A DNA stretch of 27,901 nt from a virus. Its lineage: Duplodnaviria; Heunggongvirae; Uroviricota; Caudoviricetes. The stretch's first letter is position 1. Every line of letters begins with the position of its first letter. The stretch is taken from IMG/VR virus record IMGVR_UViG_2684622620_000012; one strand, 5' to 3'. A model generated the notes under the pieces. It worked only from the letters and a program-made list of their open reading frames with translations. It was not told where the DNA came from and did no database searches. Below, piece after piece: positions 1,500-16,562 of this stretch. Both the position numbers and the translations under genes were made by a program.

Positions 1500-2027
1500 T
1501 CATTGATGGCCTGATTTTTCCCATTCAGCCAGGGCGTTTAGTCCTGCCTCACTCCATGTGTCCTGTTCATCGGGACAATCGCTGGCAACATAGCATAGTT
1601 CACAACGCAGCATATGAATTGCCAGCCAGGCATTACCCCGCAAATTGTATTGTTCAAAGTAATGCTGTCCTTCATCATCCTCAAGGCAGATAGCACCATC
1701 ATCAAGAAAGTGCACTTCCCAGCCTAATTCCCCGGCTGCATTCAGCACACGCTGCCGTATGTCATCGTCCGTTACTGGCGCAGGGATTTTACCGTCTCTG
1801 GCCTTAACTGCTTTCCAGAACTCGCCCCACGTCATTTCCAGCGTTCTCTCTGGCCACATTTCAGAAACGGTGTCTTTCCCCTGTGCTGGTGGGCTGTTCC
1901 GCTGATCTGTCGCATCCACATCAATTTTTTTGCCAGACATGATCACTTCGCCTTTCTCGATCCAGTCGTAAACTGTCTGGCGGCTTACGCCTTTGTATTT
2001 GGCGTATTCGGCTTTACTCATCAACAT
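1500..2027 (-). CDS. DNA-binding protein with N-terminal helix-turn-helix (MerR/excisionase-like), about 175 aa
   Basis: N-terminal SKAEYAKYKGVSRQTVYDWIEKGEV resembles HTH_17/excisionase-type motifs. GAGGTGA sits 5 nt upstream of the ATG at 2027; the track ATG at 2045 lacks an SD. Confidence 0.6.
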   Translation of the reverse strand: MLMSKAEYAKYKGVSRQTVYDWIEKGEVIMSGKKIDVDATDQRNSPPAQGKDTVSEMWPERTLEMTWGEFWKAVKARDGKIPAPVTDDDIRQRVLNAAGELGWEVHFLDDGAICLEDDEGQHYFEQYNLRGNAWLAIHMLRCELCYVASDCPDEQDTWSEAGLNALAEWEKSGHQ

Positions 2028-2127
2028 GTAGCTCACCTCATGCATATACGATAAAAAAATAATTTCATGCGGAAAGGGAATGCGTTGTGGGTATGGAGGA
2101 AAGGGGCAATAACCGCCCCTTACTGAT

Positions 2128-3230: not shown

Positions 3231-4373
3231 TTAAAGGGAACTTTTTTTCGCCCCTTCAATTTCTGCCTGACAAATTTCGTCATTTGTAAATGAGTACTGC
3301 AAATAGACATATCCCTGAGTGGAATTGTTCGCTCTGGCCTCAATATATATAGTATCAATATTGTTTTTTAATGGTATTTCTTTTGTTCCCTTCCATGTGG
3401 CAGATAAGAAGCGTTCTTTTTTGTTTAGCCCCCTCATCCAGTCCTGAGGATCTTTCCAAATTGAACCAGCCAGCAAAAAGTCTGTAGTATCAGCCTTTCC
3501 ATACAGAGAACTTAAAGAATTACTCAATTCTTCAAACTTGGATTTAAGAGCCAATCCATAGCTATCAGTATCAATATTTTTTCCTAAAGCCCGTATTTGA
3601 CATAAACCAGCTTTCGGGGAGATCAACAAACCATACATTTCAAAATCTGCGTTTTGCTTCGGTAATTTATCAGAAGTATACAGATTCACACTGTCTGGTA
3701 GTGGCTTGAGCTTAGCACCGATCATATCTTCGATGTTTTTCTGTGTAAGACCGGCTTCTAAGCCAAACGGACCATCCGCTGGCGGGAGTAAAGGAAGTTG
3801 CTCTTGGGAATTTTTGGCTGTTACTTCCGTTTCAGTACTGTTTTTTGCGTCATTATCTTGTACTGATGCCAGCTTAACTTCAGCGAGGCCATACTTGGCT
3901 GTGAGGTACTTTTGCTGCAACATTGCCATGGTCTGCTCTTCAGTGGCAACAGTAGATAATTTTAGTACCTTTATCAGACCACCACTATACTGACGAGCAT
4001 CAGCTTTGGCTTCGTTGATTTTTGCATCTAAGCTGTCAATTTCAGTTTTAATTGAAGCCGCAAGCTCAGGATCAGGTTTTACTCCAGATACAACAACATC
4101 AATTTTGGCGCCTGATTCAATAGCATTAATACGCTGTTCCAAAAGCGCTTTATTAGTTCCTAATATTTCCAGTCTTGCTGTTGTCAGATTTTTTATCAAC
4201 CCACCAGAAAACTGCTGGTCAACTTCCTTAGCTGCTGATATTTCACCTTCCGTTTGCGACAGTTCAGCTTTAAGAGCCGCTACTTCCTGTTTCTGTTCTG
4301 GAGTTAACTCTTCTGGCCCACATCCGGTTAACATTACTATACCGACTAATGTTGCAATTAAAGTTTTATTCAT
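3231..4373 (-). CDS. lipoprotein with coiled-coil-like internal repeats, 380 aa
   Basis: Signal peptide plus lipobox (MNKTLIATLVGIVMLTGC); an internal ~40 aa segment is duplicated (QQFSGGLIKNLTTARLEILG... and RQYSGGLIKVLKLSTVATEE); ATG at 4373; AT-rich. Confidence 0.75.
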   Translation of the reverse strand: MNKTLIATLVGIVMLTGCGPEELTPEQKQEVAALKAELSQTEGEISAAKEVDQQFSGGLIKNLTTARLEILGTNKALLEQRINAIESGAKIDVVVSGVKPDPELAASIKTEIDSLDAKINEAKADARQYSGGLIKVLKLSTVATEEQTMAMLQQKYLTAKYGLAEVKLASVQDNDAKNSTETEVTAKNSQEQLPLLPPADGPFGLEAGLTQKNIEDMIGAKLKPLPDSVNLYTSDKLPKQNADFEMYGLLISPKAGLCQIRALGKNIDTDSYGLALKSKFEELSNSLSSLYGKADTTDFLLAGSIWKDPQDWMRGLNKKERFLSATWKGTKEIPLKNNIDTIYIEARANNSTQGYVYLQYSFTNDEICQAEIEGAKKSSL

Positions 4374-4795: not shown

Positions 4796-5370
4796 GCGCC
4801 TGTTTTCTCCTTTGCTGCCCGGCGCTGACGTTTGCGCTTCTCATTCAGCGCCACCAGCCGCGTTTCTGCGTCCTGTTGTTCCTGTGGTGTCACCTCGCCG
4901 CACGGCTGGCCTTTCAGGTCGTAGCGTACCCCACCAGCCATTAAGGCGCGGTAATAGCGCGGACACTGCGCATAAGATGCCAGCGTCGCACGTAATGCCC
5001 CTGGCCCGAATGCCAGCCCCCTGACGGCGAGATTCTGCATCAGGTCGTCAAATATTCCCACCTTAAGCGGCTTCGGTGCTTCCCGGTTGAATAATTCAGG
5101 CCACAACTCAGTAAGGCGGTTAACGCGCCTGCGATTTTTGCGCTGGCGTTTGGTCATATGCCGCCACGATGTCGCCCCTGTGAGCTTCTGCTGCGCTTTC
5201 TGGTTACCGAGCATCACTTTATGCGCCGATGGGGTTTTATCCTGCTCCTGTGCCGCCTGCGTCGTTTTCTGCGGCGTGCCGTAAATGCCTTTCGGTTTTC
5301 TGTTAATGGTCAGCTTAGTCATGCTTTGCCCCATCGTTTTTACTGATTGTTTCATGCCCGGTACTTTCAT
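4792..5370 (-). CDS. FinO/ProQ-domain RNA-binding protein with basic N-terminal extension, 192 aa
   Basis: C-terminal half (LTELWPELFN...PLKVGIFDDLMQNL...LRATLASYAQCPRYYRALMAGGVRYDLKGQPCGEV) aligns by eye with the ProQ N-terminal/FinO domain of E. coli ProQ. Start uncertain: no good SD at any in-frame ATG. Confidence 0.75.
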   Translation of the reverse strand: MKVPGMKQSVKTMGQSMTKLTINRKPKGIYGTPQKTTQAAQEQDKTPSAHKVMLGNQKAQQKLTGATSWRHMTKRQRKNRRRVNRLTELWPELFNREAPKPLKVGIFDDLMQNLAVRGLAFGPGALRATLASYAQCPRYYRALMAGGVRYDLKGQPCGEVTPQEQQDAETRLVALNEKRKRQRRAAKEKTGA

Positions 5371-5399
5371 CTACCATCAACGTCAAAACTACGAAACGG

Positions 5400-5674
5400 G
5401 ATGCATTCATATAGATGCGCTGAACGTATACTGCAATAATGGCTGGGTGGAAATCGACAAAAACATCGCCGAAAACGCCTAACGTGGTGTGGCAGTGGGC
5501 CGGAAAAACTGGTTGTTCGCAGGTTCCAACAGCGGTGGCGAACATACTGCGGTGCTGTACTTGCTGATCGGCACGTGCCGTCTGAACAAGGAGGAGCCAG
5601 AAAAATGGTTGCGTTACGTCATTGAGCATATCCCGGACTGGACGGCAAACCGGGTACGTGATCTGTTGTCCTAG
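5400..5674 (+). pseudogene. IS66-family transposase, C-terminal remnant with in-frame stop
   Basis: GWVEIDKNIAENA*RGVAVGRKNWLFAGSNSGGEHTAVLYLLIGTCRLN... matches the conserved IS66 TnpC C-terminus (EIDNN...GRKNWLF...); TAA at 5480-5482 interrupts the frame; only ~90 codons of a ~500 aa transposase are present. Confidence 0.65.
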
Positions 5675-5962
5675 AAAGCCGATCTAACCGGGCAATAAAT
5701 ATCAAAACGGTTTTGGCGAGCCGCTTGCATCTCAACAAAACAATTGATATTTAAATAATAAAAATACATACACTACAATAAGTTAAATTATGAGGTTATA
5801 TTGGGGATACTTCACATAAAGAGTTATGATGACCCCGGATAACTTTATCGAAAGTACCGATGATAATCTAAGTTAACAATGAGTTTCAGTTTTTCGATTC
5901 ATACATGACATGGCTTGCACTATGTAAGTGATTAATTATTAATATTATTTTACGCATAATCG

Positions 5963-5990
5963 AGAAGGGGGCGCTTAAGTACCCCCAAAC
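5963..5990. repeat. AAGGGGGCGCT + CTTAAGTACCCCCAAA motif, shared with the integrase upstream region
   Basis: AAGTACCCCCAA (5977-5988) recurs exactly at 16276-16287; CTTAAGTACCCC(C)AAA recurs inverted at 16299-16314; AAGGGGCGCT recurs at 16333-16342. Also forms a local hairpin (GGGGG...CCCCC) just 3' of the peptidase gene. Confidence 0.4.
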
Positions 5991-5992
5991 TT

Positions 5993-6889
5993 TTAGATAT
6001 GCCGAATAAAGGATTGGTTATTAGAGCCTTCAATAAGCTTAACTGTAGGAGTGTTGAAAAGGGTTTGTGTACAACAGTGATGTACTGTAAGAACTGCGTC
6101 CTGAAACTGGGGATGGTCTTCAAGCTGAGTGATCCGCAAACCTAATTCAATGGCTCTCTCTGCGTGGATATGCCGAGAATGATCCTTCGTATCCGTACGA
6201 TTGTTTAAGCTTTTGACAATCGCAGTGGCGAGTTCGCTACGCCGAGGTTCAGGTAAATCTTTAAGCATTCCATTTTTTAACCATTCAGTAACCAAATCAT
6301 CGGCAAGCTGAATAGCTTTGCTAGCTGTATCAAAAATGGTAGGTGGGTAGCGCGAGATGATTGTTTGCCAAATCGGGAGGCTGGAAGGTTCTTTTTGAAT
6401 GCTATCAATAGCATTTTTTAACTCTTCCAAAATACCATAAGCTGAAAGACCACCAAAGATATGAGGATCAAAAGGTCCGATACTTGAATGATGCCCCATT
6501 ACAATTTCTTTGCAGGCACACGCAATCATTGTTCCTGCAGACATGCTCATTTGAGGAACAATGGCCCGAATATCACCATTAAAAAGCTTTTTAAGGTAGT
6601 AAACCAGAGACTCAGCCGCAGTTATAGAACCACCAGGGGTATGCAAGAAAAGGTCTAAGCCTTTCGTTCTATCCATTCCGTTAACAACAGCCATGAAACC
6701 ATTTTTGTCATCATCATTGATGCTGACATGCTGATGATTACCGTTATGTAAAAAGTCTGTGTAGTAACATATTACGTTTCTATCAGTACTGTCACTCAAA
6801 GCTTTTATGTACTTACGGCGGACAATATCAAAGCGAGAATCGTCTTGGAGGCTTTGGATTTCCTCCAAGACTTGGGCCAGATTGGGCAT
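5993..6889 (-). CDS. ClpP/crotonase-fold serine peptidase (S49/SDH-like family), 298 aa
   Basis: [20 protein letters not shown]...[23 protein letters not shown] matches the TPGG...SAGT nucleophile region of ClpP/SppA/serine-dehydrogenase-type proteases; AAGGA sits 8 nt upstream of the ATG; AT-rich. Confidence 0.65.
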
Positions 6890-6907
6890 GGGATGGTAAC
6901 GTCCTTG

Positions 6908-7132
6908 TTAAGCTTTTGTAGTGGTGCTTACATGCAAAGTTGAGTAGCCAGTTGTTCTGGTAGAACACTTAAGCTTAGTCATCTCATGTTGATGAGAAAA
7001 ACTTGCAACACCGCTTAAGCCGCCGAACTCATGGCTCATTGCGCCAAATTGTTGTGGGAACTGGATACCTGAAGTATTTGATGCCACAAGTCCCGTTTCC
7101 AAGAGAATTTTTTCGTAATTGATTTCAGCCAT
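6908..7132 (-). CDS. small hypothetical protein, 74 aa, upstream partner of the peptidase
   Basis: ATG at 7132 with GGAG 8 nt upstream; stops 18 bp before the peptidase start. S/T/G-rich with no recognised motif. Confidence 0.4.
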   Translation of the reverse strand: MAEINYEKILLETGLVASNTSGIQFPQQFGAMSHEFGGLSGVASFSHQHEMTKLKCSTRTTGYSTLHVSTTTKA

Positions 7133-7210
7133 GTTAGTACTCCGCTAAATGTAGTGCTTGCGTCAATGCTTCGACACTACATGTTGTTTTTATAGTTCTT
7201 TTTAGACAGA

Positions 7211-7244
7211 AAAACCCCGCTGTCTGGCGAGGTTTTATTTTTCT
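7211..7244. terminator. hairpin AAAACCCCGC...GCGAGGTTTT with flanking T-runs
   Basis: ~10 bp imperfect stem with loop TGTCTG, followed by TTTATTTTTC on plus and TTTTTC on minus; separates the helicase-fragment region from the peptidase operon. Confidence 0.35.
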
Positions 7245-7379
7245 TATGCTGATAATAGCAGCAATTATAAGAAGTCAAAGTCTTTTTATGTAAATTTTAA
7301 GCTGTTAGGGGTGATTTTTCTCTAACTTGTTGATTCGTTCTCAAGCTAAGTCATGTTTTAAGAGCGGCAACTGCACTAA

Positions 7380-8274
7380 TAACCTGCCCGTTCTCAGACA
7401 TGATTCGTGAAAATGCGAGACGTTTCAGCTGCTCCATATCGAGTCCAGGAGCCCGTAGTAATGCATCAGACAGTTCCTGCTACTTTCCGCTGTACATCGA
7501 CAGCAGCATTTTCCTGACTGCTGCGCTCGAACCTACCGAATGCCTGAACATCATCAGATGCCAGTGGTTTAACCGGTGAGAATCTGTTCATCAGATAATC
7601 GAGAATGTTTGCAGTCTGCTTGCTTACGGCAGACACACCACGAGTAAAGGATTTAAGCGTGTCCAGATTCCACCCGCTCTGCGGTTTTTTGCCTGTTCGT
7701 TAAAATCCGGATCGTTGCGGATAACGTCAAGCAATTCTGCCTCTACTTCTGCCCGCTGCGCCATGACGCGTAGGTTAGTCAGTTCGCCGACCATGCCGCA
7801 GAATAAAGCATCCATCTGAGTATTTGGCGCAGCAACCTTACCGGCATAATCCACCAGCATTCCCACGCAATCAGCTAGCCGCTTCAGGTGGTCACAGAAG
7901 GCGTACAGCTTTACCTCCAGTGCCTCTTTGCTGTTCCGTTTCCTCAGCAGCAGCGCCCGCTCTTTTTCCGGGGTCCTTATCTTCCTCACTGACGCGACAG
8001 TTAAACTGGAAAATAACACGGCGACGGGCAACGCTTCCGGCGTGTTCGGTAAAAATCATCGGCGTATTATTCGTGGCCACAACCACCGCCCGGCATATTC
8101 TGTAAAACTTACGCTCTGTCCCTGTCGCATCCAGTGCGCAATCATGATCAGAGTTCTGGTAAAGCGGTGAATATCGCCGCATAGTCCACATGATGTCGCA
8201 AAACTTTTCAGCTCTTCACGCTCTATGTAAGTCATACCCTGAGGTATGTAACGTTCTGTTTTCATTTTTAACAT
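7380..8274 (-). pseudogene. decayed C-terminal fragment of a D5/P4-alpha-type (SF3) primase-helicase
   Basis: Three broken ORFs (8056..8274, 7892..8191, 7624..8031). The middle one carries VVVATNNTPMIFTEHAGSVARRRVIFQFN, resembling SF3 helicase motif C plus the downstream RR...F segment of D5/P4 primases. No Walker A/B upstream; frame changes and an in-frame stop present. Confidence 0.4.
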
Positions 8275-8280
8275 TCCTGA

Positions 8281-8680
8281 TTTTTTAATTCCTCACCTGC
8301 TGCGCAGTGAGAATTTATGAAGTTAATAACAATATGATTTTAAATATATTTTTAAGCACTCACTTTTTAATCCTTATATATACGCAAAAGTGAGGTAAAT
8401 AGTTAAGTTTTAGTTAATATCTTGCATGGTATGTTTTTTAACCTACCTGTTATTTTTATTACCTCATTTCTATTAACTCACCATTCCTCACTTTTGTTCC
8501 TCACTTTTTGTTATTCTTGTTCTGCTCCTCAGTCGTTTTCTTTATTGTTGTAATATGTTGTTTTGCAATGTTTTTTTAATTCCTCATTTTTTGATCTATA
8601 TACAGGTGAGAAAGTGAGGAAAACAGGGATGATTTTTAAATATTCCCTTCCCCCCTCACTTTTACGCTTCACTTTTTACA
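8281..8680. repeat. iteron-rich AT-rich region (more than 10 copies of TTCCTCACTTTT in both orientations), candidate origin
   Basis: Copies at about 8291, 8358, 8388 (inv), 8461, 8477, 8486, 8499, 8581, 8606-8620 (inv pair), 8653, 8668; exact 15-mer TTTTTTAATTCCTCA at 8281-8295 and 8573-8587; lies immediately 3' of the helicase gene. Confidence 0.6.
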
Positions 8681-10088
8681 GTGGGCGCACATCATCACCG
8701 TCAATAGCGATTACGCCGTCACCTTCCAGCTTGTACAGCCAGCGCCGGAAGTTTTTCATCTCATACCCCAGCTTTTTCATGTCATCGCGCAACAACGGAA
8801 TAGTACATTTATCTCCGCGTTGCGTGCGTGAACGAATACAACCCCATAGTGCGGCGTGATTCTCCGTCTTGTTCCCAGCTTCCTCGATGCGCTCCAGTTC
8901 AACCGGCGGACGGGGCTTATCCTCCAGCACCAGCGACGTGATTAACTCCCCGCCCTCATCCTTGAAAAGCTCAACCTCGCGCAAATCGCAAGCCATTTCT
9001 TTCAGTTCCTCCGCATCCTTCATCTTGGTACATGCGATAACCAGGGCTTCACTGCCTGCACCTTCACGGCGTATCCGGTATTCTGCATCCAGTGCTGCAC
9101 GAAACGCACTGGAACCGCGCGCACCCTTTGTTTCATCCTTGCCGGAATGGTGAATTACCAGCACTGTAGCGCCTGTACGTCGTTTCAGTTCGTCACATCC
9201 ATGGACAAATGCCCCCATATCCCGCGCATCATTTTCATCGCTGCCACCAAAGCAACGCGCCAGAGTATCCAGAATAATCATGCGTACAGGTTTACCCGTT
9301 TCCTGCTCAACCTGTCGGGCAGCAATAACCATTTCATCAACATCACCCGGTGCGGCCGGAAAAATTGGACGATTTACCAGGTATAGATTTTTCACCTGCT
9401 CACTGTTCACCAGTTCCCATGCCTTGATACGACGAGGAACACCGATCCCGCCCTCACCAACGACATACATCACCGCACCATGTACAACCCTGCGACCTCC
9501 CCACGGGATACCGGTAGCAACATGACACGCCCACGAACACGCAAGGAACGACTTATAAGAACCGCTCGCACCGTATGTGCTACATAGCGAATTAGCCGGA
9601 ATCACGCCCTTAACTACATAGCTAAGCTGTGAATCATATCCTTCCGATCCAATGCTCATTGGTAGCGTGGTTTTTCGCTGGCTGTATTGCTCGTCAGTAA
9701 GTATTTCCCCGCGCTCAGCCTGTTCGCGGATCCGTTGCAGGTAGTCGTGCCAGTTCTCCGGCTCCCCGTCGGTGATACCTTTGTATAATTTCGCCTCCTG
9801 TACGCCAGCCAGCGCCAGCTTTTCAGCGATAGCATTGATCTGGATTGGTTCGATCTCCCCCGCGAGATAGACACGCGCAAAGCGGCGTTCATCGTCGACA
9901 ATGCGGATATTCGCCAGGTCTGCCAGTTGCTTTGGCCCCAGGTAAACAGGTGGTACGTTATCGCCGTGTTTTCGTCCTTCGCTTTCAATCCAGTGTTGAG
10001 CATGGGCGTAAGCATCCGTCCCGGCAAAAATGATTACCTCGGTGAATTTATCCTTCGGCTGATATTTTAAATTCGGTGCGTTTTTCAC
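8676..10088 (-). CDS. RecA-like NTPase, RepA/DnaB-type replicative helicase (AAA_25-like), 470 aa
   Basis: P-loop YGASGSYKS, Walker B-like MIILDTLARCF, and VLVIHHSGKDETKGARGSSAF typical of RepA/DnaB-family helicases; GTG start with GGGAGGT 6 nt upstream, overlapping the upstream stop. Confidence 0.7.
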   Translation of the reverse strand: MKNAPNLKYQPKDKFTEVIIFAGTDAYAHAQHWIESEGRKHGDNVPPVYLGPKQLADLANIRIVDDERRFARVYLAGEIEPIQINAIAEKLALAGVQEAKLYKGITDGEPENWHDYLQRIREQAERGEILTDEQYSQRKTTLPMSIGSEGYDSQLSYVVKGVIPANSLCSTYGASGSYKSFLACSWACHVATGIPWGGRRVVHGAVMYVVGEGGIGVPRRIKAWELVNSEQVKNLYLVNRPIFPAAPGDVDEMVIAARQVEQETGKPVRMIILDTLARCFGGSDENDARDMGAFVHGCDELKRRTGATVLVIHHSGKDETKGARGSSAFRAALDAEYRIRREGAGSEALVIACTKMKDAEELKEMACDLREVELFKDEGGELITSLVLEDKPRPPVELERIEEAGNKTENHAALWGCIRSRTQRGDKCTIPLLRDDMKKLGYEMKNFRRWLYKLEGDGVIAIDGDDVRPL

Positions 10089-10375
10089 TTCTTACCTCCC
10101 GCAACCAACATTGCCCGGATTTTTTTAATATTCGTGGCTGCACGTCTCGCCACCGCCTGTTGTTTGTTTTCAACCAGAATAAAATCACGCTCAAACTGAC
10201 GGCGCGGCATTACGCAGTCATATTCGTAAGCCTCACGGCGGTAGGTGATATTGCCTGGCGTAACGTGACGAATAACCACTCGTCCCCCACGTCTGGTGTC
10301 GCGGTAAATATCTCCGTGTCTGATTTCAGGCCGAGAGAGACCGCTGGCAGTAAAGCCAGAATTTTTCTTTTTCAT
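10085..10375 (-). CDS. hypothetical basic protein, 96 aa
   Basis: Member of a chain of tightly packed minus-strand small genes; stop overlaps the helicase GTG start. Confidence 0.5.
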   Translation of the reverse strand: MKKKNSGFTASGLSRPEIRHGDIYRDTRRGGRVVIRHVTPGNITYRREAYEYDCVMPRRQFERDFILVENKQQAVARRAATNIKKIRAMLVAGGKK

Positions 10376-10379
10376 GGTT

Positions 10380-10580
10380 TTATTTTCCTGTCAGCAGTTC
10401 CGGTTTTATTTCCGCACGAATACAAAGTTCAGAAAAAAATTCAGGAGAACCAACAATCTCATTACTTTTCAGTCGGCATTGTGATTTCACTTTCCCTTTA
10501 TCTAGGTAAACCAGTACGCGTCCGGTGAAATCATCTGGCACATTAAGCACTACGGGTACATGCGCTTCATGATTATGCAT
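10380..10580 (-). CDS. hypothetical protein, 66 aa
   Basis: Start overlaps the upstream gene stop; no recognised motif. Confidence 0.45.
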   Translation of the reverse strand: MHNHEAHVPVVLNVPDDFTGRVLVYLDKGKVKSQCRLKSNEIVGSPEFFSELCIRAEIKPELLTGK

Positions 10581-10806
10581 GGCTTACATCCTCCGTGAAT
10601 TTTCTTCTGTAACGCGTCTCTGCCACATATTCCGCATAGTCTGACGCAATACTAAGAATCATTTCACCCTCTGACTTGTAGCCACTGGTATTGATAAGAA
10701 AATATGCAGCTTTCATCATGTCAGCAACGCTCAACAATGCGCCCGCTGCATCTTCCTGTGCGCCATCAAATTCCCGTTTCAGGGAATTAAAACGATCATC
10801 ACGCAT
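10573..10806 (-). CDS. hypothetical acidic protein, 77 aa
   Basis: Start overlaps the upstream stop; no recognised motif. Confidence 0.45.
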   Translation of the reverse strand: MRDDRFNSLKREFDGAQEDAAGALLSVADMMKAAYFLINTSGYKSEGEMILSIASDYAEYVAETRYRRKFTEDVSHA

Positions 10807-11164
10807 GTTTACCCCCCTGAATGACCTGATAACCGCAACTGGTCAGCAACTCGATAAATTCCGGCAGTGTGCCGAAACAGCAATCATCACGCAGCCGTTC
10901 GCAGGATACCTCGACGCCGTTTTCGTAGTGACTCACCATACGTCCGGTAAAATGCAGATCATCATCGTGATGACTCGTTGACGGCTTAATCAGTCGCGCA
11001 CGTTCCGCCAGTTCCAGCAATGCTTCAACGCTTCCGGCAATTGCACCATCCGGCAGGTGATAATTACGCACTATGCGCCCGTTCTCCACATTGACCAGCA
11101 ACTGCCCGGTAAATTTCTCGTCAAACTGAATGCTGTTAAGGTCAGAAATTGACAGGTTATGCAT
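10799..11164 (-). CDS. hypothetical protein, about 121 aa
   Basis: ATG at 11164 with AGGAGG upstream, 2 nt after the upstream stop; the track ORF extends to 11182 without an RBS. Confidence 0.5.
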   Translation of the reverse strand: MHNLSISDLNSIQFDEKFTGQLLVNVENGRIVRNYHLPDGAIAGSVEALLELAERARLIKPSTSHHDDDLHFTGRMVSHYENGVEVSCERLRDDCCFGTLPEFIELLTSCGYQVIQGGKHA

Positions 11165-11381
11165 AGTGCACCTCCTGCACATCAGCCATGATAATTTTTC
11201 CGGCCTTATCCAGTGCCTGATCGGCTTTTAGCTGCACAAATGCTAAATAATGGAAGATGCATTCTGATTCTCTGGCTGCGTGTTTATGCGCCACACCAGC
11301 GATAGCAGAAATCTCAATAAGTGAATCCATCAGCGTTTTGATAGTGTCTACCGCTGCATCAGGCCATGTTGCATTACACAT
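11157..11381 (-). CDS. hypothetical protein, 74 aa
   Basis: ATG at 11381 overlaps the stop of the upstream gene. Confidence 0.45.
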   Translation of the reverse strand: MCNATWPDAAVDTIKTLMDSLIEISAIAGVAHKHAARESECIFHYLAFVQLKADQALDKAGKIIMADVQEVHYA

Positions 11382-12106: not shown

Positions 12107-12823
12107 CCATCACCAGCGCCGTGGTGTGAGGGACTACGGTGCATCGTTTTACAGGGCAGCGCCATGACCAACAAAGAATCAACCAATACACCATCACCGG
12201 CACGGAAAAGACAGCGCAGAAAGATAGCGTACGAGCATGAGTCAAACAGATTCGCGCCCTGTGCGTTTATCCTTGAGAAATTCCTTAAAGAGTACAGGCG
12301 CACAAAAATGGGATCGCATACCTGGAAAACATCGCGGCATGGCGATGTTAAAGAGCAGGAATAGCCCACCAGCAAGCCAGCATATTCACCATAATGACCC
12401 TCAGTTAAACATAGAGTCATTGGTGCAAAGCTGACACATTGCCCACCAGCCGCAAATCTGGCATTGTTGGCGATGCGTTCAAGTATGTAGCTTTCCCACT
12501 GGCGGCCCTCTGCGGTCGCCTTTGTTTTATCCAGAACGAAATCAGACATCAGATTGATCAGCACCTGGCGACCTGACAAAATCGCATCAGTCGCGCCACC
12601 AGCAAAATTTTTTGCTTTTCGGACAGTGTGATCAACGACATTTTGCAGCAAAATATTCTGCATTTCTGGCGTGCTGTAGTAACGGTGATCAGCGCCTTCA
12701 CTCTGTGCGACCACAACGCTATAATCTGCCTCGTAGACAGTAAGCAATATGGCGCAGTAGGCTATTCGTTCACAAAGGCGCTCCGGCAACGGGGCGCTTT
12801 CTCTTTTTGTAACGGTCAGAGCG

Positions 12824-13624
12824 TTACACATGGCTGTTTTCCTCCATGCGACGGGCTAACCAACGCTGCGAAAGACGAATTAATTCAGCCTTCCGCTGGT
12901 GGTAGTCCTGGCCTAACTCAATCAGCGTGATATTGCTCTGCTCAAGGTAAGAAAGGTGCTCAAGCTGCAACGTGCTCATGTGGTCGCGTGGTTCGCCTGT
13001 AATGCCGTTCGCCAGTGCCCACTGTTTTGCAGTCATGCCACCCAGCACGATACGCGCCAGCATGCTCGCTTCCGTGGTGTAGTGGTGCTGGAGTGTGTTT
13101 TTACCCAGTTCAGCCCGGTACGCCTCCAGCGCGGCACACATTGGCTTAAAGTAGCTGGCAACTGTGATACGGGCTTTCAGTTCCCGGCGTAACGCTGCGG
13201 AACGAACAGGCGCAACCTTGTGTAGCTCCTCCTCGCATTTGATAAAGTACTGGCGAACGGCGCGGCCCTGTTCGGTACGTTCGACCATCGCCAGTTCTTT
13301 CGCCATGTTCACTGTGATGATGTACTCAAGAGCGGTTTGCTGGCGAGATTTTGCGCTCACCGGATCGGGTCGGCTCAAATATTCAACAACCTCATAATCC
13401 ACGCCTTCCGTGAACCCGTATTCTTCAATGCGCCCCTTGATCCACGAACGGAAAACGCGCCCTACACCTAACGCCTTATGTAACGCTCTGGCGCTAACAA
13501 TAGTGGTTTCACTCCCGCCAATAACGCCGGAAATAATCGGGATAATTTCGCCGAAATTTTGCAGATTCTGGTTTTCAGGCCGAACGAAGCCCCGCCCCTG
13601 TACGGGCGTTTTTGGAAATTTCAT
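12824..13624 (-). CDS. phage antirepressor-like protein (AntA-type N-terminal domain), 266 aa
   Basis: TTIVSARALHKALGVGRVFRSWIKGRIEEYGFTEGVDYEV resembles the AntA/AntB antirepressor N-terminal domain; downstream of alpA on the same strand. Confidence 0.6.
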   Translation of the reverse strand: MKFPKTPVQGRGFVRPENQNLQNFGEIIPIISGVIGGSETTIVSARALHKALGVGRVFRSWIKGRIEEYGFTEGVDYEVVEYLSRPDPVSAKSRQQTALEYIITVNMAKELAMVERTEQGRAVRQYFIKCEEELHKVAPVRSAALRRELKARITVASYFKPMCAALEAYRAELGKNTLQHHYTTEASMLARIVLGGMTAKQWALANGITGEPRDHMSTLQLEHLSYLEQSNITLIELGQDYHQRKAELIRLSQRWLARRMEENSHV

Positions 13625-13701
13625 AAAAACTCCTGCTATCGAATTAAGTTACTTTTATTTGCTGGTGGATAGCTGGGGGCAATAGCCCCGTAGCCATTTA
13701 A

Positions 13702-13899
13702 TCAGGTAGCTGTTCCGCGTGATTCCGCAATACGCTGATTAATCCACTCGTCAATTTCACTCTCAACGAAAGCAATAGCTCGCGAGCCAATTTTAACTGA
13801 TGCAGGAAATTTACCTTGCCCCATAAGGCGATAAATCCATGCCTTGCTATATCCAGTTCTACGCTGAACTTCTGTTAAACGAATAAGCGTATTTGACAT
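13702..13899 (-). CDS. alpA: AlpA-family transcriptional regulator, 65 aa
   Basis: LIRLTEVQRRTGYSKAWIYRLMGQGKFPASVKIGSRAIAFVESEIDEWI is a close match to the AlpA (CP4-57 regulatory protein) HTH signature. Confidence 0.85.
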   Translation of the reverse strand: MSNTLIRLTEVQRRTGYSKAWIYRLMGQGKFPASVKIGSRAIAFVESEIDEWINQRIAESRGTAT

Positions 13900-14093
13900 A
13901 TATTTACCTCATAACGTCTACTCAATTTGACGAGGTAATCATGGCACAGAAATAACGAATATTTTCATACCCTCAGGCCTAATGGTTACCGGAAGGAAAT
14001 TAACCCTAAGGGTGATGGTAAAATTGACGGGGAAGATAAAAAAATACCCTCAGGGTAACAGTAAATCACCCTCAGGGTATGCGGTATGGTGCG

Positions 14094-14891
14094 TTAATCC
14101 GGCTTTGCGTTCTTTTGGCTGTTGTCTCGGTTAATAGGGCAGGCAGTCCTCTCTATGAGCGTTGCAAGTGCATTACTTGCCCCCCACTGCTTAAGCTCCC
14201 TAGTTATCGCTTCTTGATTTCCCCTGGTGGCAAAATCATTTTCTGGATCGTAATTGGCCCACTCTCTGTTTCTAATCTCAATAGCCTTAGCTAATGGGTC
14301 TTTATCCCAGTATTTATATAAGTGTATCGGGCGCTCTTGCTCTAACTGCTCTATCCTTGCCCTTAACTCTGCGTTTTCTTTTTCCAGCATTGCGATTTGG
14401 GATAATAAATCATCCTCTGTACGCAACTCTTTCTTTTCAATATCGCGTCCTTGTGCCTCGTCATTTTCAGAAGAGTTAGCGCCTTCCAGCTTCGTTAACG
14501 CGTCAAGGACATCGGGAAAAATTGCGAAAATTTCACCCCTTATAAATCCAATGTTCTCAAATTCGGGATCTTCCCAATAACCGGACACCAGAAAACCATT
14601 TTCATCCCTCTCACCAGGTAAACAACCACGTTTCCGAACCGCATTCAGATTTCTATAAAGAACATCATAATCAAATTCATCCCGATACGGGTTACAAAAA
14701 GATTCCAACAGCTTAAATTCATTTACTGTGTACAGGCGGATATGTTCTCCGCTTATTCTCCTGAGTATCCAAGTTATGACATCTGAAACATCATAATCAT
14801 CACCAGCGACCTTAAGCACGACCTCAAGAAATTCACGTAAAGAAATAAAATCTTTTTTGTATTCGTTTAATTCGGCATGAATATCAATCAT
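14094..14891 (-). CDS. hypothetical protein with central coiled coil, 265 aa; cargo gene between int and alpA
   Basis: ATG at 14891 with GAGGT 6 nt upstream; leucine-zipper-like segment LLSQIAMLEKENAELRARIEQLEQE; lower GC than flanking genes; no recognised catalytic motif. Confidence 0.6.
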   Translation of the reverse strand: MIDIHAELNEYKKDFISLREFLEVVLKVAGDDYDVSDVITWILRRISGEHIRLYTVNEFKLLESFCNPYRDEFDYDVLYRNLNAVRKRGCLPGERDENGFLVSGYWEDPEFENIGFIRGEIFAIFPDVLDALTKLEGANSSENDEAQGRDIEKKELRTEDDLLSQIAMLEKENAELRARIEQLEQERPIHLYKYWDKDPLAKAIEIRNREWANYDPENDFATRGNQEAITRELKQWGASNALATLIERTACPINRDNSQKNAKPD

Positions 14892-15019
14892 ACGCACACC
14901 TCAGCGTCCTCTACTGTAGTGGCTGTACCAGTCCGTCGAGGTGTACGGATTTTCGGGAGCGACCCTAGACACAGCCTTTTCTTTCGTCGCTCAAAGTCTA
15001 CTACTGTATACGCAACCAG

Positions 15020-16234
15020 TCATCCACATTTTCCGAACTTGCCATGCACCACGTTACCGCCATGTTCGAGCGAATCCATATAGTCGGCGTACCACTGGAG
15101 CATCTCGCGCCGCCCGTCCAGATATTGCGCATGATTGTACGTGCCACGAATTGAGTTCTTATCAACGTGTGCAAGCTGCGTTTCTATCCACGCGGTGTTA
15201 TAGCCCTGCTCATGTAAAATCGTGCTCATGGTGTGCCGGAATCCATGACCAGTAACCTTTCCGTTATAGCCGATGCGTTTAAATACTTGGTTTATGCTAG
15301 CCTCGCTCATTGTTTTCCTTGGATCATTGCGGCCGGGAAACATAAGCGGATAATTACCAGTTAATTCTTTAATCTGCCCAATAAGAGAAAGAGCCTGCTT
15401 AGACAAAGGCACCACATGAGGGCGACGCATTTTCATCCGTGAAGCAGGTATCTCCCAGATAGCCTTGTTGAGATCGATTTCATCCCATAATGCACCGCGC
15501 AGTTCGCCAGTTCGCAAACCAGTGATAATCAGTAGACGAGCCGCCATAACAACCAATGCACTTCCTGAGTAACTGGACAATGCCTTGAAAAAATCAGGCA
15601 ATTCTTTGGCTGTGAGGAAAGGATAATGATTAGATTCATGGCCTTGCATCGCGCTAGTAAGATCTGGGGCAGGGTTATACTCTGCGCGACCAGTGACTAT
15701 TGCATAGCGGAAAACTTCCCCGCACCGCTGCCTCACTTTTTTGGCTTTTTCTGTAGCACCGCGCCCCTCGATGCGTCGCAGCACATTCAGAAGTTCAAGT
15801 GGTTTGATTTCGGCAATTGGTTTTTTGCCAATGTAAGGGAACACATCTTTGTTGAAGGCTTCGAGGATATCTGAAGCATAACCAGCAGACCATTTTTTTA
15901 ATTTGCTGCTGTGCCACTCAAGGGCAATATCTTTGAAGGTATTGTTTAACTGCGTTTCCCGGGCAATCTTTTCCTCTCGTTTCGCTTCCATCGGATCGAT
16001 ACCCCCAGCGATACCCCTTTTAGCTTCTTCACGTTTTGCACGAGCATCAGCCAAGGTAACTTCAGGATACACACCTAGTGCTAACAGCTTCTCTTTACCA
16101 GCTACACGATATTTAAAGCGCCAGTATTTTCCTCCACTAGGTTTTACCAGGAGATACAGACCACCACCATCAGCCAGCTTGTAAGCCTTCTCTTTTGGCT
16201 TGGCAGTGTCTATTTGACGGGCATTGAGTTTCAC
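15020..16234 (-). CDS. int: tyrosine integrase, P4-type (DUF4102 N-terminus plus phage integrase catalytic domain), 404 aa
   Basis: N-terminal KLNARQIDTAKPKEKAYKLADGGGLYLLVKPSGGKYWRFKYR is the hallmark of P4-family integrases; C-terminal HGFRHT...LAH...RGTY contains the catalytic residues; GTG start with GGAGGT upstream. Confidence 0.9.
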   Translation of the reverse strand: MKLNARQIDTAKPKEKAYKLADGGGLYLLVKPSGGKYWRFKYRVAGKEKLLALGVYPEVTLADARAKREEAKRGIAGGIDPMEAKREEKIARETQLNNTFKDIALEWHSSKLKKWSAGYASDILEAFNKDVFPYIGKKPIAEIKPLELLNVLRRIEGRGATEKAKKVRQRCGEVFRYAIVTGRAEYNPAPDLTSAMQGHESNHYPFLTAKELPDFFKALSSYSGSALVVMAARLLIITGLRTGELRGALWDEIDLNKAIWEIPASRMKMRRPHVVPLSKQALSLIGQIKELTGNYPLMFPGRNDPRKTMSEASINQVFKRIGYNGKVTGHGFRHTMSTILHEQGYNTAWIETQLAHVDKNSIRGTYNHAQYLDGRREMLQWYADYMDSLEHGGNVVHGKFGKCG

Positions 16235-16342
16235 TTGGGGGTACCTCCACTAAACCGAACAGCAAATACCCCCAAAAGTACCCCCAATTGACTGTAGATT
16301 TTGGGGTACTTAAGTAGACGTCAAAAGACTAAAAGGGGCGCT
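16234..16342. repeat. cluster of GTACCCCCAA / GGGGTAC motifs and AAGGGGCGCT upstream of the integrase
   Basis: TTGGGGGTACC (16235-16245, inverted), ATACCCCCAAAAGTACCCCCAA (16266-16287), TTTTGGGGTACTTAAG (16299-16314, inverted), AAAAGGGGCGCT (16331-16342); one copy each also at 5963-5990. Confidence 0.5.
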
Positions 16343-16562
16343 AACATGCGGATTATAAGAGGTTTTTAAATACTTGAGTAGACTTGGGGAGACGTTAGAA
16401 TGGTGCCGATAATAGGAGTAAAACACTCGATTAATCTCGTGTTAATGCCATCACCTACGACCATTACTAATTGATTGAATCTTATAGAAAAAATCATCAT
16501 TTTCTATGCGTTACAATCAATTTTCACATTACAAACGCTCCGACACTTTAGCCGGGGAGTTT

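Follow-up and report, generated by a model that had tools for sequence, protein, structure and literature searches.

What replicates a satellite island in which an intact helicase gene and its iterons are followed at once by the remains of an unrelated helicase? The question is raised by positions 7380–10088 of IMG/VR record IMGVR_UViG_2684622620_000012, a 27,901-nucleotide (nt) stretch of DNA referred to here as the window. By its gene content, the window is a phage satellite of Escherichia coli of the Gram-negative phage-inducible chromosomal island (PICI) type. A first-pass annotation of the segment proposed two replication systems: a RepA-like helicase with iterons and, next to it, the pseudogene of an older superfamily 3 (SF3) primase-helicase, left by replacement of a replicon module within the island. 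Our analysis indicates that the island very likely has a single working replicon, consisting of RepA and the origin that follows its gene, together with a scar, itself without function, of recombination between modules of the RepA and SF3 types. To speak of two replication systems is an overstatement, since the SF3 piece is without Walker A and B motifs, most of its origin-binding domain, and all of its iterons.

The RepA-Type Replicon

The helicase gene, read from the minus strand, is intact, as the first-pass annotation had it (Table 1). RepA of this family is found in about 640 of 5,426 complete E. coli genomes. The window protein is 99% identical to the copy in strain A17, and the two genes, 98% identical, differ at 11 synonymous and 4 non-synonymous positions; with a dN/dS of 0.11, RepA is under purifying selection. 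An alignment with 24 homologues from Escherichia, Salmonella, Shigella, and Enterobacter (62–98% identity) shows that Walker A (GASGSYKS) and Walker B (D274) are invariant in all 24, as befits the core of a P-loop ATPase. The same alignment shows that RepA homologues are themselves mosaic, the N-terminal domain, core, and C-terminus having recombined within the gene. Homologue P0198, for example, has the N-terminal domain and C-terminus of the window type around a Salmonella-like ATPase core, and P0191 has a core of the window type after a different N-terminal domain.

The predicted origin lies directly 3′ of repA. Its G+C content is 26–31%, against about 52% in the flanks, and the iteron CCTCACTTTT (at most one mismatch) occurs eight times between 8358 and 8676, in both orientations, against three times in the other 27.5 kb. 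The layout is ordered: copies at 8486/8499 and at 8654/8667 are paired directly, and those at 8358/8386 and at 8582/8610 form inverted pairs around TATATA. The iteron field reported earlier beside the helicase is thus borne out. A single perfect CCTCACTTTT at 15731–15740, within the integrase gene, is probably a chance occurrence. Scans of the replication region with Rfam and for promoters and terminators gave nothing above chance.

Iterons of the AAAAGTGAGG type are also found 3′ of RepA in A17 and 3′ of a RepA fossil in the related island of cq9. A RepA from Enterobacter, which has a divergent C-terminus, is followed by other repeats, AAATGCGM. Repeats of still other sequence follow SF3 genes: GGTAGAY in cq9 and GGTGTTCAT in MB56. 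Because initiator type and iteron sequence co-vary, cognate recognition by the C-terminal domain is likely, and we infer that the winged helix of RepA reads the AAAAGTGAGG iterons. A search of the whole window for the SF3-type iterons GGTGTTCAT and GGTAGAY found no cluster. In MB56, the iterons occupy positions 7890–8150 of the locus, with GGTGTTCAT on one strand and ATGAACAC on the opposite strand. The MB56 repeat resembles TGTTCACC, the iteron of the P4 origin, and this resemblance fits the presence of a P4-type origin-binding domain (1KA8) in the MB56 protein.

From these features, the following course of replication can be proposed. After induction of the island, RepA would bind the AAAAGTGAGG iterons through its winged helix, melt the AT-rich spacer, load itself as a hexameric helicase, and recruit host replication proteins.

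A Composite of Three Gene Fragments

The older primase-helicase pseudogene of the first-pass annotation is in part correct: a non-functional SF3 remnant is present, but SF3 sequence is limited to 7851–8092, and the rest of 7380–8300 derives from two other genes. Alignment with related islands resolves 7361–8265 into a composite of three gene fragments rather than one pseudogene, as follows.

In A17, the RepA origin is followed by a gene of 257 residues, and the fragment nearest the origin in the window is its beginning. Cut off after its first 62 codons, it runs on as an open reading frame (ORF) of 72 residues at 8056–8274. DNA like that of A17 (98% identity) ends at 8083 and DNA like that of MB56 starts at 8092; the junction between them joins RepA-module DNA to codon ~395 of an SF3 gene.

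The second fragment is the SF3 remnant, about 240 nt in two pieces of about 40 and 45 codons. Pfam gave no matches with the raw ORFs of the debris, and the homology surfaced in tblastn against intact relatives and in PHROG and NCBIfam profiles. With tblastn, the segment matches intact proteins of the 'DNA primase family' from MB56 (WP_142503694, E 3e-18) and cq9 (E 3e-14), so that the VVVATNNTP...ARRRVIFQF segment was rightly recognized as SF3-derived. In profile searches it matches phrog_864 'DNA primase' at E 1e-9, and at 1.6e-11 when both pieces are stitched; the sole NCBIfam match, TIGR01613 (the C-terminal domain of P4-family primases), is weak, with an E of 0.007, far below the cutoff. 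The intact relatives are clearer. The MB56 protein matches TIGR01613 at E 3.4e-30 (104.9 bits, against a cutoff of 108.7), and its residues 482–578 match the origin-binding domain of P4 α, 1KA8 (E 1.6e-17); the cq9 protein matches D5_N, DUF5906, and Pox_D5.

Against the 587 codons of the MB56 gene, homology in the window begins only at codon ~395. The upstream part, with Walker A, Walker B, and D5_N, is absent, and just 22 residues (482–503) of the origin-binding domain survive. The reading frame is interrupted by a 71-nt frameshifting deletion between CCCGR repeats that separates fragments A and B and by fusion to another gene. That other gene, the third fragment, is a decayed copy of the gene found 3′ of the SF3 origin in MB56. 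It contains frameshifts and in-frame stops, and its homology is cut off sharply at 7361, toward its 3′ end. An 875-nt deletion between GCTGGYGGRTWA repeats joins SF3 fragment B to it, and because of this deletion, the SF3 iteron origin is entirely gone, as is most of the origin-binding domain. All three breakpoints fall in short microhomologies. Without its Walker motifs, its iterons, and the greater part of the origin-binding domain, the SF3 system is dead in every respect, and only the RepA replicon can work. The debris at 7361–8265 thus reads as a scar of recombination without function.

The Prokaryotic Genome Annotation Pipeline (PGAP) calls an ORF in this debris, WP_369755561. The ORF has no family matches among Pfam, PHROG, and NCBIfam profiles and, given its chimeric composition, is most likely an annotation artefact.

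Table 1. Coordinates of the replicon, the gene fragments, and selected island genes in the window.
Feature	Position	Strand	Basis
Replication origin (predicted), AT-rich, intergenic, with 8 AAAAGTGAGG/CCTCACTTTT iterons	8275–8675		Repeats, G+C content, comparison with A17 and cq9
RepA-type replication initiator-helicase, 470 residues, intact	8676–10088	−	Pfam AAA_25 (PF13481), E 3e-44; PGAP 'helicase RepA family protein'
RepA N-terminal domain, ~130 residues	9699–10088	−	Residues 1–130
RepA RecA-like ATPase core (AAA_25)	9132–9638	−	Residues 151–319; Pfam coordinates and conserved motifs
RepA C-terminal winged-helix-like domain (putative reader of iterons)	8679–8891	−	Residues 400–470
First 62 codons (5′ end) of the 257-residue gene 3′ of the RepA origin in A17	8265 to 8080	−	tblastn, 82% identity, E 3e-30
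Junction J1, illegitimate crossover, within imperfect microhomology GCCrGsCrGTGG	8083–8092		Limits of A17 and MB56 alignments; three-way alignment
SF3 fragment A, motif C (VVVATNNTP...RRRVIFQF), residues ~395–435 of MB56 primase-helicase	7969–8092	−	86% nt identity; tblastn E 3e-18; phrog_864 E 1e-9
SF3 fragment B, residues 459–503 of MB56 primase, 5 codons missing	7851–7975	−	75% nt identity; protein E 8e-14
Decayed copy (residues 14–196 of 261) of gene 3′ of the MB56 SF3 origin	7361–7858	−	tblastn E 1e-40; 73% nt identity
ORF, PGAP 'hypothetical protein' WP_369755561, 121 residues	7624–7989	−	Chimera of SF3 fragment B and downstream-gene fragment
DUF4222 gene	10085–10375	−	Pfam PF13973, E 1.4e-19
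AlpA (helix-turn-helix regulator)	13702–13899	−	PF05930, E 2.4e-19
Tyrosine integrase	15020–16234		Arm-DNA-bind_3, Phage_int_M, and Phage_integrase domains

Replicon Exchange in Related Islands

Comparison with related islands, suggested in the first-pass annotation, is instructive: MB56, TUM9757, and cq9 carry an intact SF3 gene at exactly this position. The cq9 island is, moreover, a mirror image of the window. There, DUF4222 is followed by an intact SF3 protein of 582 residues, by GGTAGAY iterons, and then by the RepA gene from codon ~335 onward, of which the last 136 codons and the AAAAGTGAGG iterons remain. ETEC1738 and PapRG-04-4 have the same reciprocal arrangement. Among close relatives, at 90% identity or more, the RepA C-terminus is present in 17 genomes and the ATPase core in only 14; counting fossils by subtraction is valid only in this band, as at lower identity the two queries differ in sensitivity. 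In cq9, the fossil retains an open frame, and two iteron fields thus stand in tandem at 10052–11253 of the locus, GGTAGAY for the intact SF3 gene and AAAAGTGAGG behind the RepA fossil.

The TUM9757 island is ~100% identical to the window over 12800–16400 and 98–99% identical in ProQ and PerC. Between the N-terminal domain of the initiator and ProQ, where the window has RepA, it has an SF3 replicon. The backbone is almost the same and the replicon is not, which shows that replicons have recently been exchanged on a single backbone. In both the window and cq9, an intact incoming module is followed by the 3′ part of another rep gene. A homologous crossover upstream together with an illegitimate crossover in the resident rep gene would yield this pattern, which indicates the exchange of replicon cassettes between satellites.

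For the window, we propose the following steps. A homologous crossover would have occurred upstream, in or before the N-terminal domain shared by the two initiators. An illegitimate crossover at 8083–8092 would have fused SF3 codon ~395 to codon 62 of the gene that lies beyond the RepA origin. Two later deletions between microhomologies, of 71 nt and 875 nt, would have taken, among other sequence, all SF3 iterons and the bulk of the origin-binding domain.

The Shared N-Terminal Domain

The SF3 protein of cq9 and the RepA of the window differ at only 4 of their first 128 residues, and the similarity ends at the domain boundary. This domain of ~130 residues (8303–8690 in the cq9 locus) heads proteins with at least four unrelated ATPase families: AAA_25, D5/SF3 (D5_N/DUF5906/Pox_D5), VapE-like, and DUF927. 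These architectures came from an exhaustive representative search; a homologue search with the 135-residue domain gave short fragments only. The domain belongs to no Pfam or NCBIfam family, and Foldseek against the PDB found nothing significant for it. We tentatively assign it a Toprim-like fold. In its alignment, an acidic residue that follows strand 1 (D25/E) is largely conserved and D65 is conserved, and no DxD is found after strand 3 (AG-x-I), so that the Glu/DxD metal motif of Toprim domains is incomplete. Lacking the DxD motif, the domain is doubtful as a primase.

DUF4222 is found upstream of RepA-type as well as SF3-type rep genes in related islands. It is tempting, if speculative, to propose that the N-terminal domain and DUF4222 form a constant socket behind which satellites swap the helicase core, origin-binding domain, and iterons. 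Homologous recombination in the socket and an illegitimate joint downstream would then be a recurrent switch of replicon specificity. If this were so, selection could favour switching as a way for co-resident satellites to escape competition or incompatibility, and the 3′ fossils in the window and cq9 would be a readable record of switches. We consider this generalization unlikely at present and offer it as a lead, as is the finding itself that four satellite helicase families have an unannotated N-terminal domain in common.

Order of Events and Alternative Explanations

Was the SF3 module the resident replicon of this island, overwritten by RepA? We lean toward this view over one in which the SF3 piece is passenger DNA. 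The footprint of a module exchange, with its mirror image in cq9, upholds that part of the earlier proposal; its further claim, that the exchange removed an older replicon within this island, is not established and is weakened by the comparisons that follow.

Several points weigh against the explanation preferred here. Replication from the RepA origin and binding of iterons by the winged helix are both deduced from sequence. The Walker A motif of RepA has Tyr in place of the canonical Gly (GSYKS), though this is invariant in the family. The AlphaFold model of full-length RepA is poor, with a mean predicted local distance difference test score (pLDDT) of 64 and a low-confidence core; it is confident at both ends, which leaves just the two terminal domains usable. 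The debris is only 73–86% identical to its nearest intact relative, and the actual parent was not found. A scan of GTDB species genomes with the SDH-family protease of the adjacent cargo, aimed at the donor of debris and cargo, turned up no relatives other than some in unrelated phyla, at 53% identity or below. The left flank of the debris is cargo present in only six genomes. Finally, the int-AlpA-AntA backbone matches TUM9757, but the SF3 debris is of the MB56 type, not of the TUM9757 or cq9 type. Given this mismatch of SF3 type and the six-genome cargo, the SF3 gene that was overwritten may at no time have been part of this backbone; the joint may have arisen in a different island and then entered this one as a block.

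The alternative that fares best differs from the reading preferred here in the order and place of events only, not in the identity of any sequence. The island would always have been driven by RepA, and a foreign block comprising the SF3 tail, the SDH-protease cargo, and an IS66 fragment would have been inserted downstream of the origin, replacing codons 63–257 of the downstream gene. Indeed, the difference from A17 is exactly the replacement of these codons by ~2.7 kb (window 5346–8082), a fragment of an IS66-family transposase lies at the left end of the block, and cargo and debris occur together in only six genomes. On the other side, such an insertion calls for two joints that are both illegitimate, where the preferred reading needs one homologous and one illegitimate joint, and the decay of the debris is old and multi-step. 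The reciprocal structure of cq9, in turn, follows naturally from cassette replacement anchored in the shared N-terminal domain. We judge the insertion possible, with the balance of evidence against it.

Might the debris have acquired a new use? The chimeric ORF (7624–8031) or the motif-C peptide could in principle serve as a decoy or poison subunit against the SF3 helicases of competing satellites or P4-like elements. The case is circumstantial, namely that satellites are in competition and that as many as four related islands occur in one E. coli genome. No promoter-like site upstream exceeds chance expectation, the fragments are short and divided among reading frames, and outside the six identical genomes the fragments are not conserved, hence selection on them is not assessable. 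A role of this kind appears very improbable. Still less credible is a second working replication system, with the SF3 replicon retained or its fragments expressed and contributing. Motif C is well preserved and PGAP calls an ORF at 7624–7989, but the frame is broken at least three times and contains in-frame stops, the ORFs of the debris have no family matches, and the parts needed for an SF3 replicon (Walker A and B, D5_N, all but 22 residues of the origin-binding domain, and any SF3-type iteron cluster in the window) are missing.

An assembly or sequencing artefact in an otherwise intact gene can be dismissed, since 7130–8290 is 100% identical in six complete E. coli genomes that were assembled independently and come from various hosts and countries, so that the frameshifts and stops are real and not read errors, and since the gene is marred by large losses, of 71 nt, of 875 nt, and of 1.2 kb at its 5′ end, not by single-base indels.

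The Island and Its Other Genes

Over 7300–10400, the window is 100% identical to five complete E. coli genomes and 98.6% identical, over most of its length, to a sixth. Gram-negative PICIs are described as having the order int-alpA-...-rep, a single direction of transcription, and a PICI-encoded PerC (Fillol-Salom et al. 2018, PMC6092414). The copy of the island in APEC20/16, with nearly all of its genes on the minus strand, reads: tyrosine integrase, a hypothetical gene, a helix-turn-helix (HTH) regulator, AntA antirepressor, an Icd-like gene, four small ORFs, DUF4222, 'helicase RepA family protein', a gap, two hypothetical genes, an SDH-family Clp-fold protease, a transposase fragment, ProQ/FinO, and PerC. 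In the window, the minus strand is used throughout from int through rep to PerC, bar two small plus-strand ORFs. The integrase and the HTH regulator, which is AlpA, carry the domains expected of a PICI, and in TUM9757 an almost identical island borders tRNA-Thr, beside proA. The arrangement of the initiator gene, followed directly by iteron sets flanking AT-rich DNA, also agrees with the description of E. coli PICI origins, which lie directly 3′ of rep (PMC6092414).

The stop codon of DUF4222 overlaps the GTG start of RepA (GTGA), an overlap that suggests translational coupling of the two genes.

Further genes deserve mention. A 181-residue protein encoded at 1500–2045 (minus strand) has an N-terminal HTH weakly like small terminase and excisionase families (phrog_57, E 6e-7) and is 40% identical to a 'DNA-binding protein' downstream of the MB56 replicon. 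It may be a PICI packaging or interference gene; its weak small-terminase-like HTH is the sole pointer to phage packaging. A 380-residue ORF at 3231–4373 (minus strand), for which PHROG gave no match, is intact here and is frameshifted in the annotation of the otherwise identical APEC20/16 (1,144 vs. 1,143 nt). The cargo block at 5373–7360 contains the IS66-family transposase fragment, the SDH-family Clp-fold serine protease (298 residues), and a 74-residue ORF, and is found in only 6 of 5,426 complete E. coli genomes. Homologues of the protease, at 42–53% identity, are scattered over many phyla, including archaea; the gene may serve an accessory or defence function. In the AT-rich spacer between debris and cargo, 7209–7304 (minus strand) gives a weak, sub-threshold Rfam match to the Hfq-binding RNA istR (25 bits against a gathering score of 45, E 0.08), adjoined at ~7209–7245 by a GC-rich hairpin and a T run.

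Comparison with Known Systems

What the window adds is physical. Four allelic variants of Pri-Rep are described in E. coli PICIs (PMC6092414), and gene flow of primase-replicases between satellite families has been inferred from paraphyletic trees (PMC10085698). Exchange of replication modules between PICI-type elements, earlier inferred from these variants and trees, is seen here in junctions resolved to the base. There is also a gain in annotation, in that WP_369755561 can be flagged as a chimeric pseudogene and the 72-residue ORF at 8056–8274 as a truncated gene start. The finding is real, but it is an ordinary consequence of known satellite mosaicism, variation in PICI replicons having been described (PMC6092414), and it leaves the understanding of how satellites work unchanged.

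The closest known system is the Pri-Rep/ori of PICIs such as EcCICFT073, with which, as described in PMC6092414, the window shares gene order, the 3′ iteron origin, unidirectional transcription, and PerC. Unlike initiators of the P4-α-like type, that of the window is a RepA/AAA_25 helicase with a RecA fold, and to the Pri-Rep picture given there the window adds physical fossils of exchange.

The debris is akin to the α protein of P4, which has primase, SF3 helicase, and winged-helix origin-binding domains and acts with ori/crr iterons; the intact relatives of the debris match TIGR01613, D5_N, DUF5906, Pox_D5, and 1KA8. In contrast to α (777 residues), these relatives are of ~585 residues and have a short N-terminal domain of 130 residues in place of the P4 primase domain. 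Unlike in P4, no psu, sid, or delta is annotated in the examined stretch of the island.

The RepA of plasmid RSF1010 acts as a helicase alone and relies on two further proteins, the iteron-binding initiator RepC and the primase RepB′. Compared with this hexameric helicase (PDB 1G8Y), the RepA of the window has extra N-terminal and winged-helix domains and, for this reason, is probably a self-contained initiator. In that respect it is like the self-loading initiator-helicases of Staphylococcus aureus pathogenicity islands (SaPIs; PDB 7OLA; PMC9371898), as a satellite helicase that would recognize iterons 3′ of its own gene. The two belong to different lineages and host groups, and the intact window protein, unlike SaPI Rep, is not SF3; it is the SF3 relatives of the debris that match 7OLA (E 2.8e-12).

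By analogy, the locus can finally be compared with mosaic multi-replicon plasmids such as IncF (FIA/FIB/FII), in which recombination likewise leaves inactive rep/ori remnants beside a working replicon. Here, the element is of another type, and the exchange, unlike in the IncF plasmids, would be anchored inside the rep gene, at the N-terminal domain that RepA-type and SF3-type initiators share.

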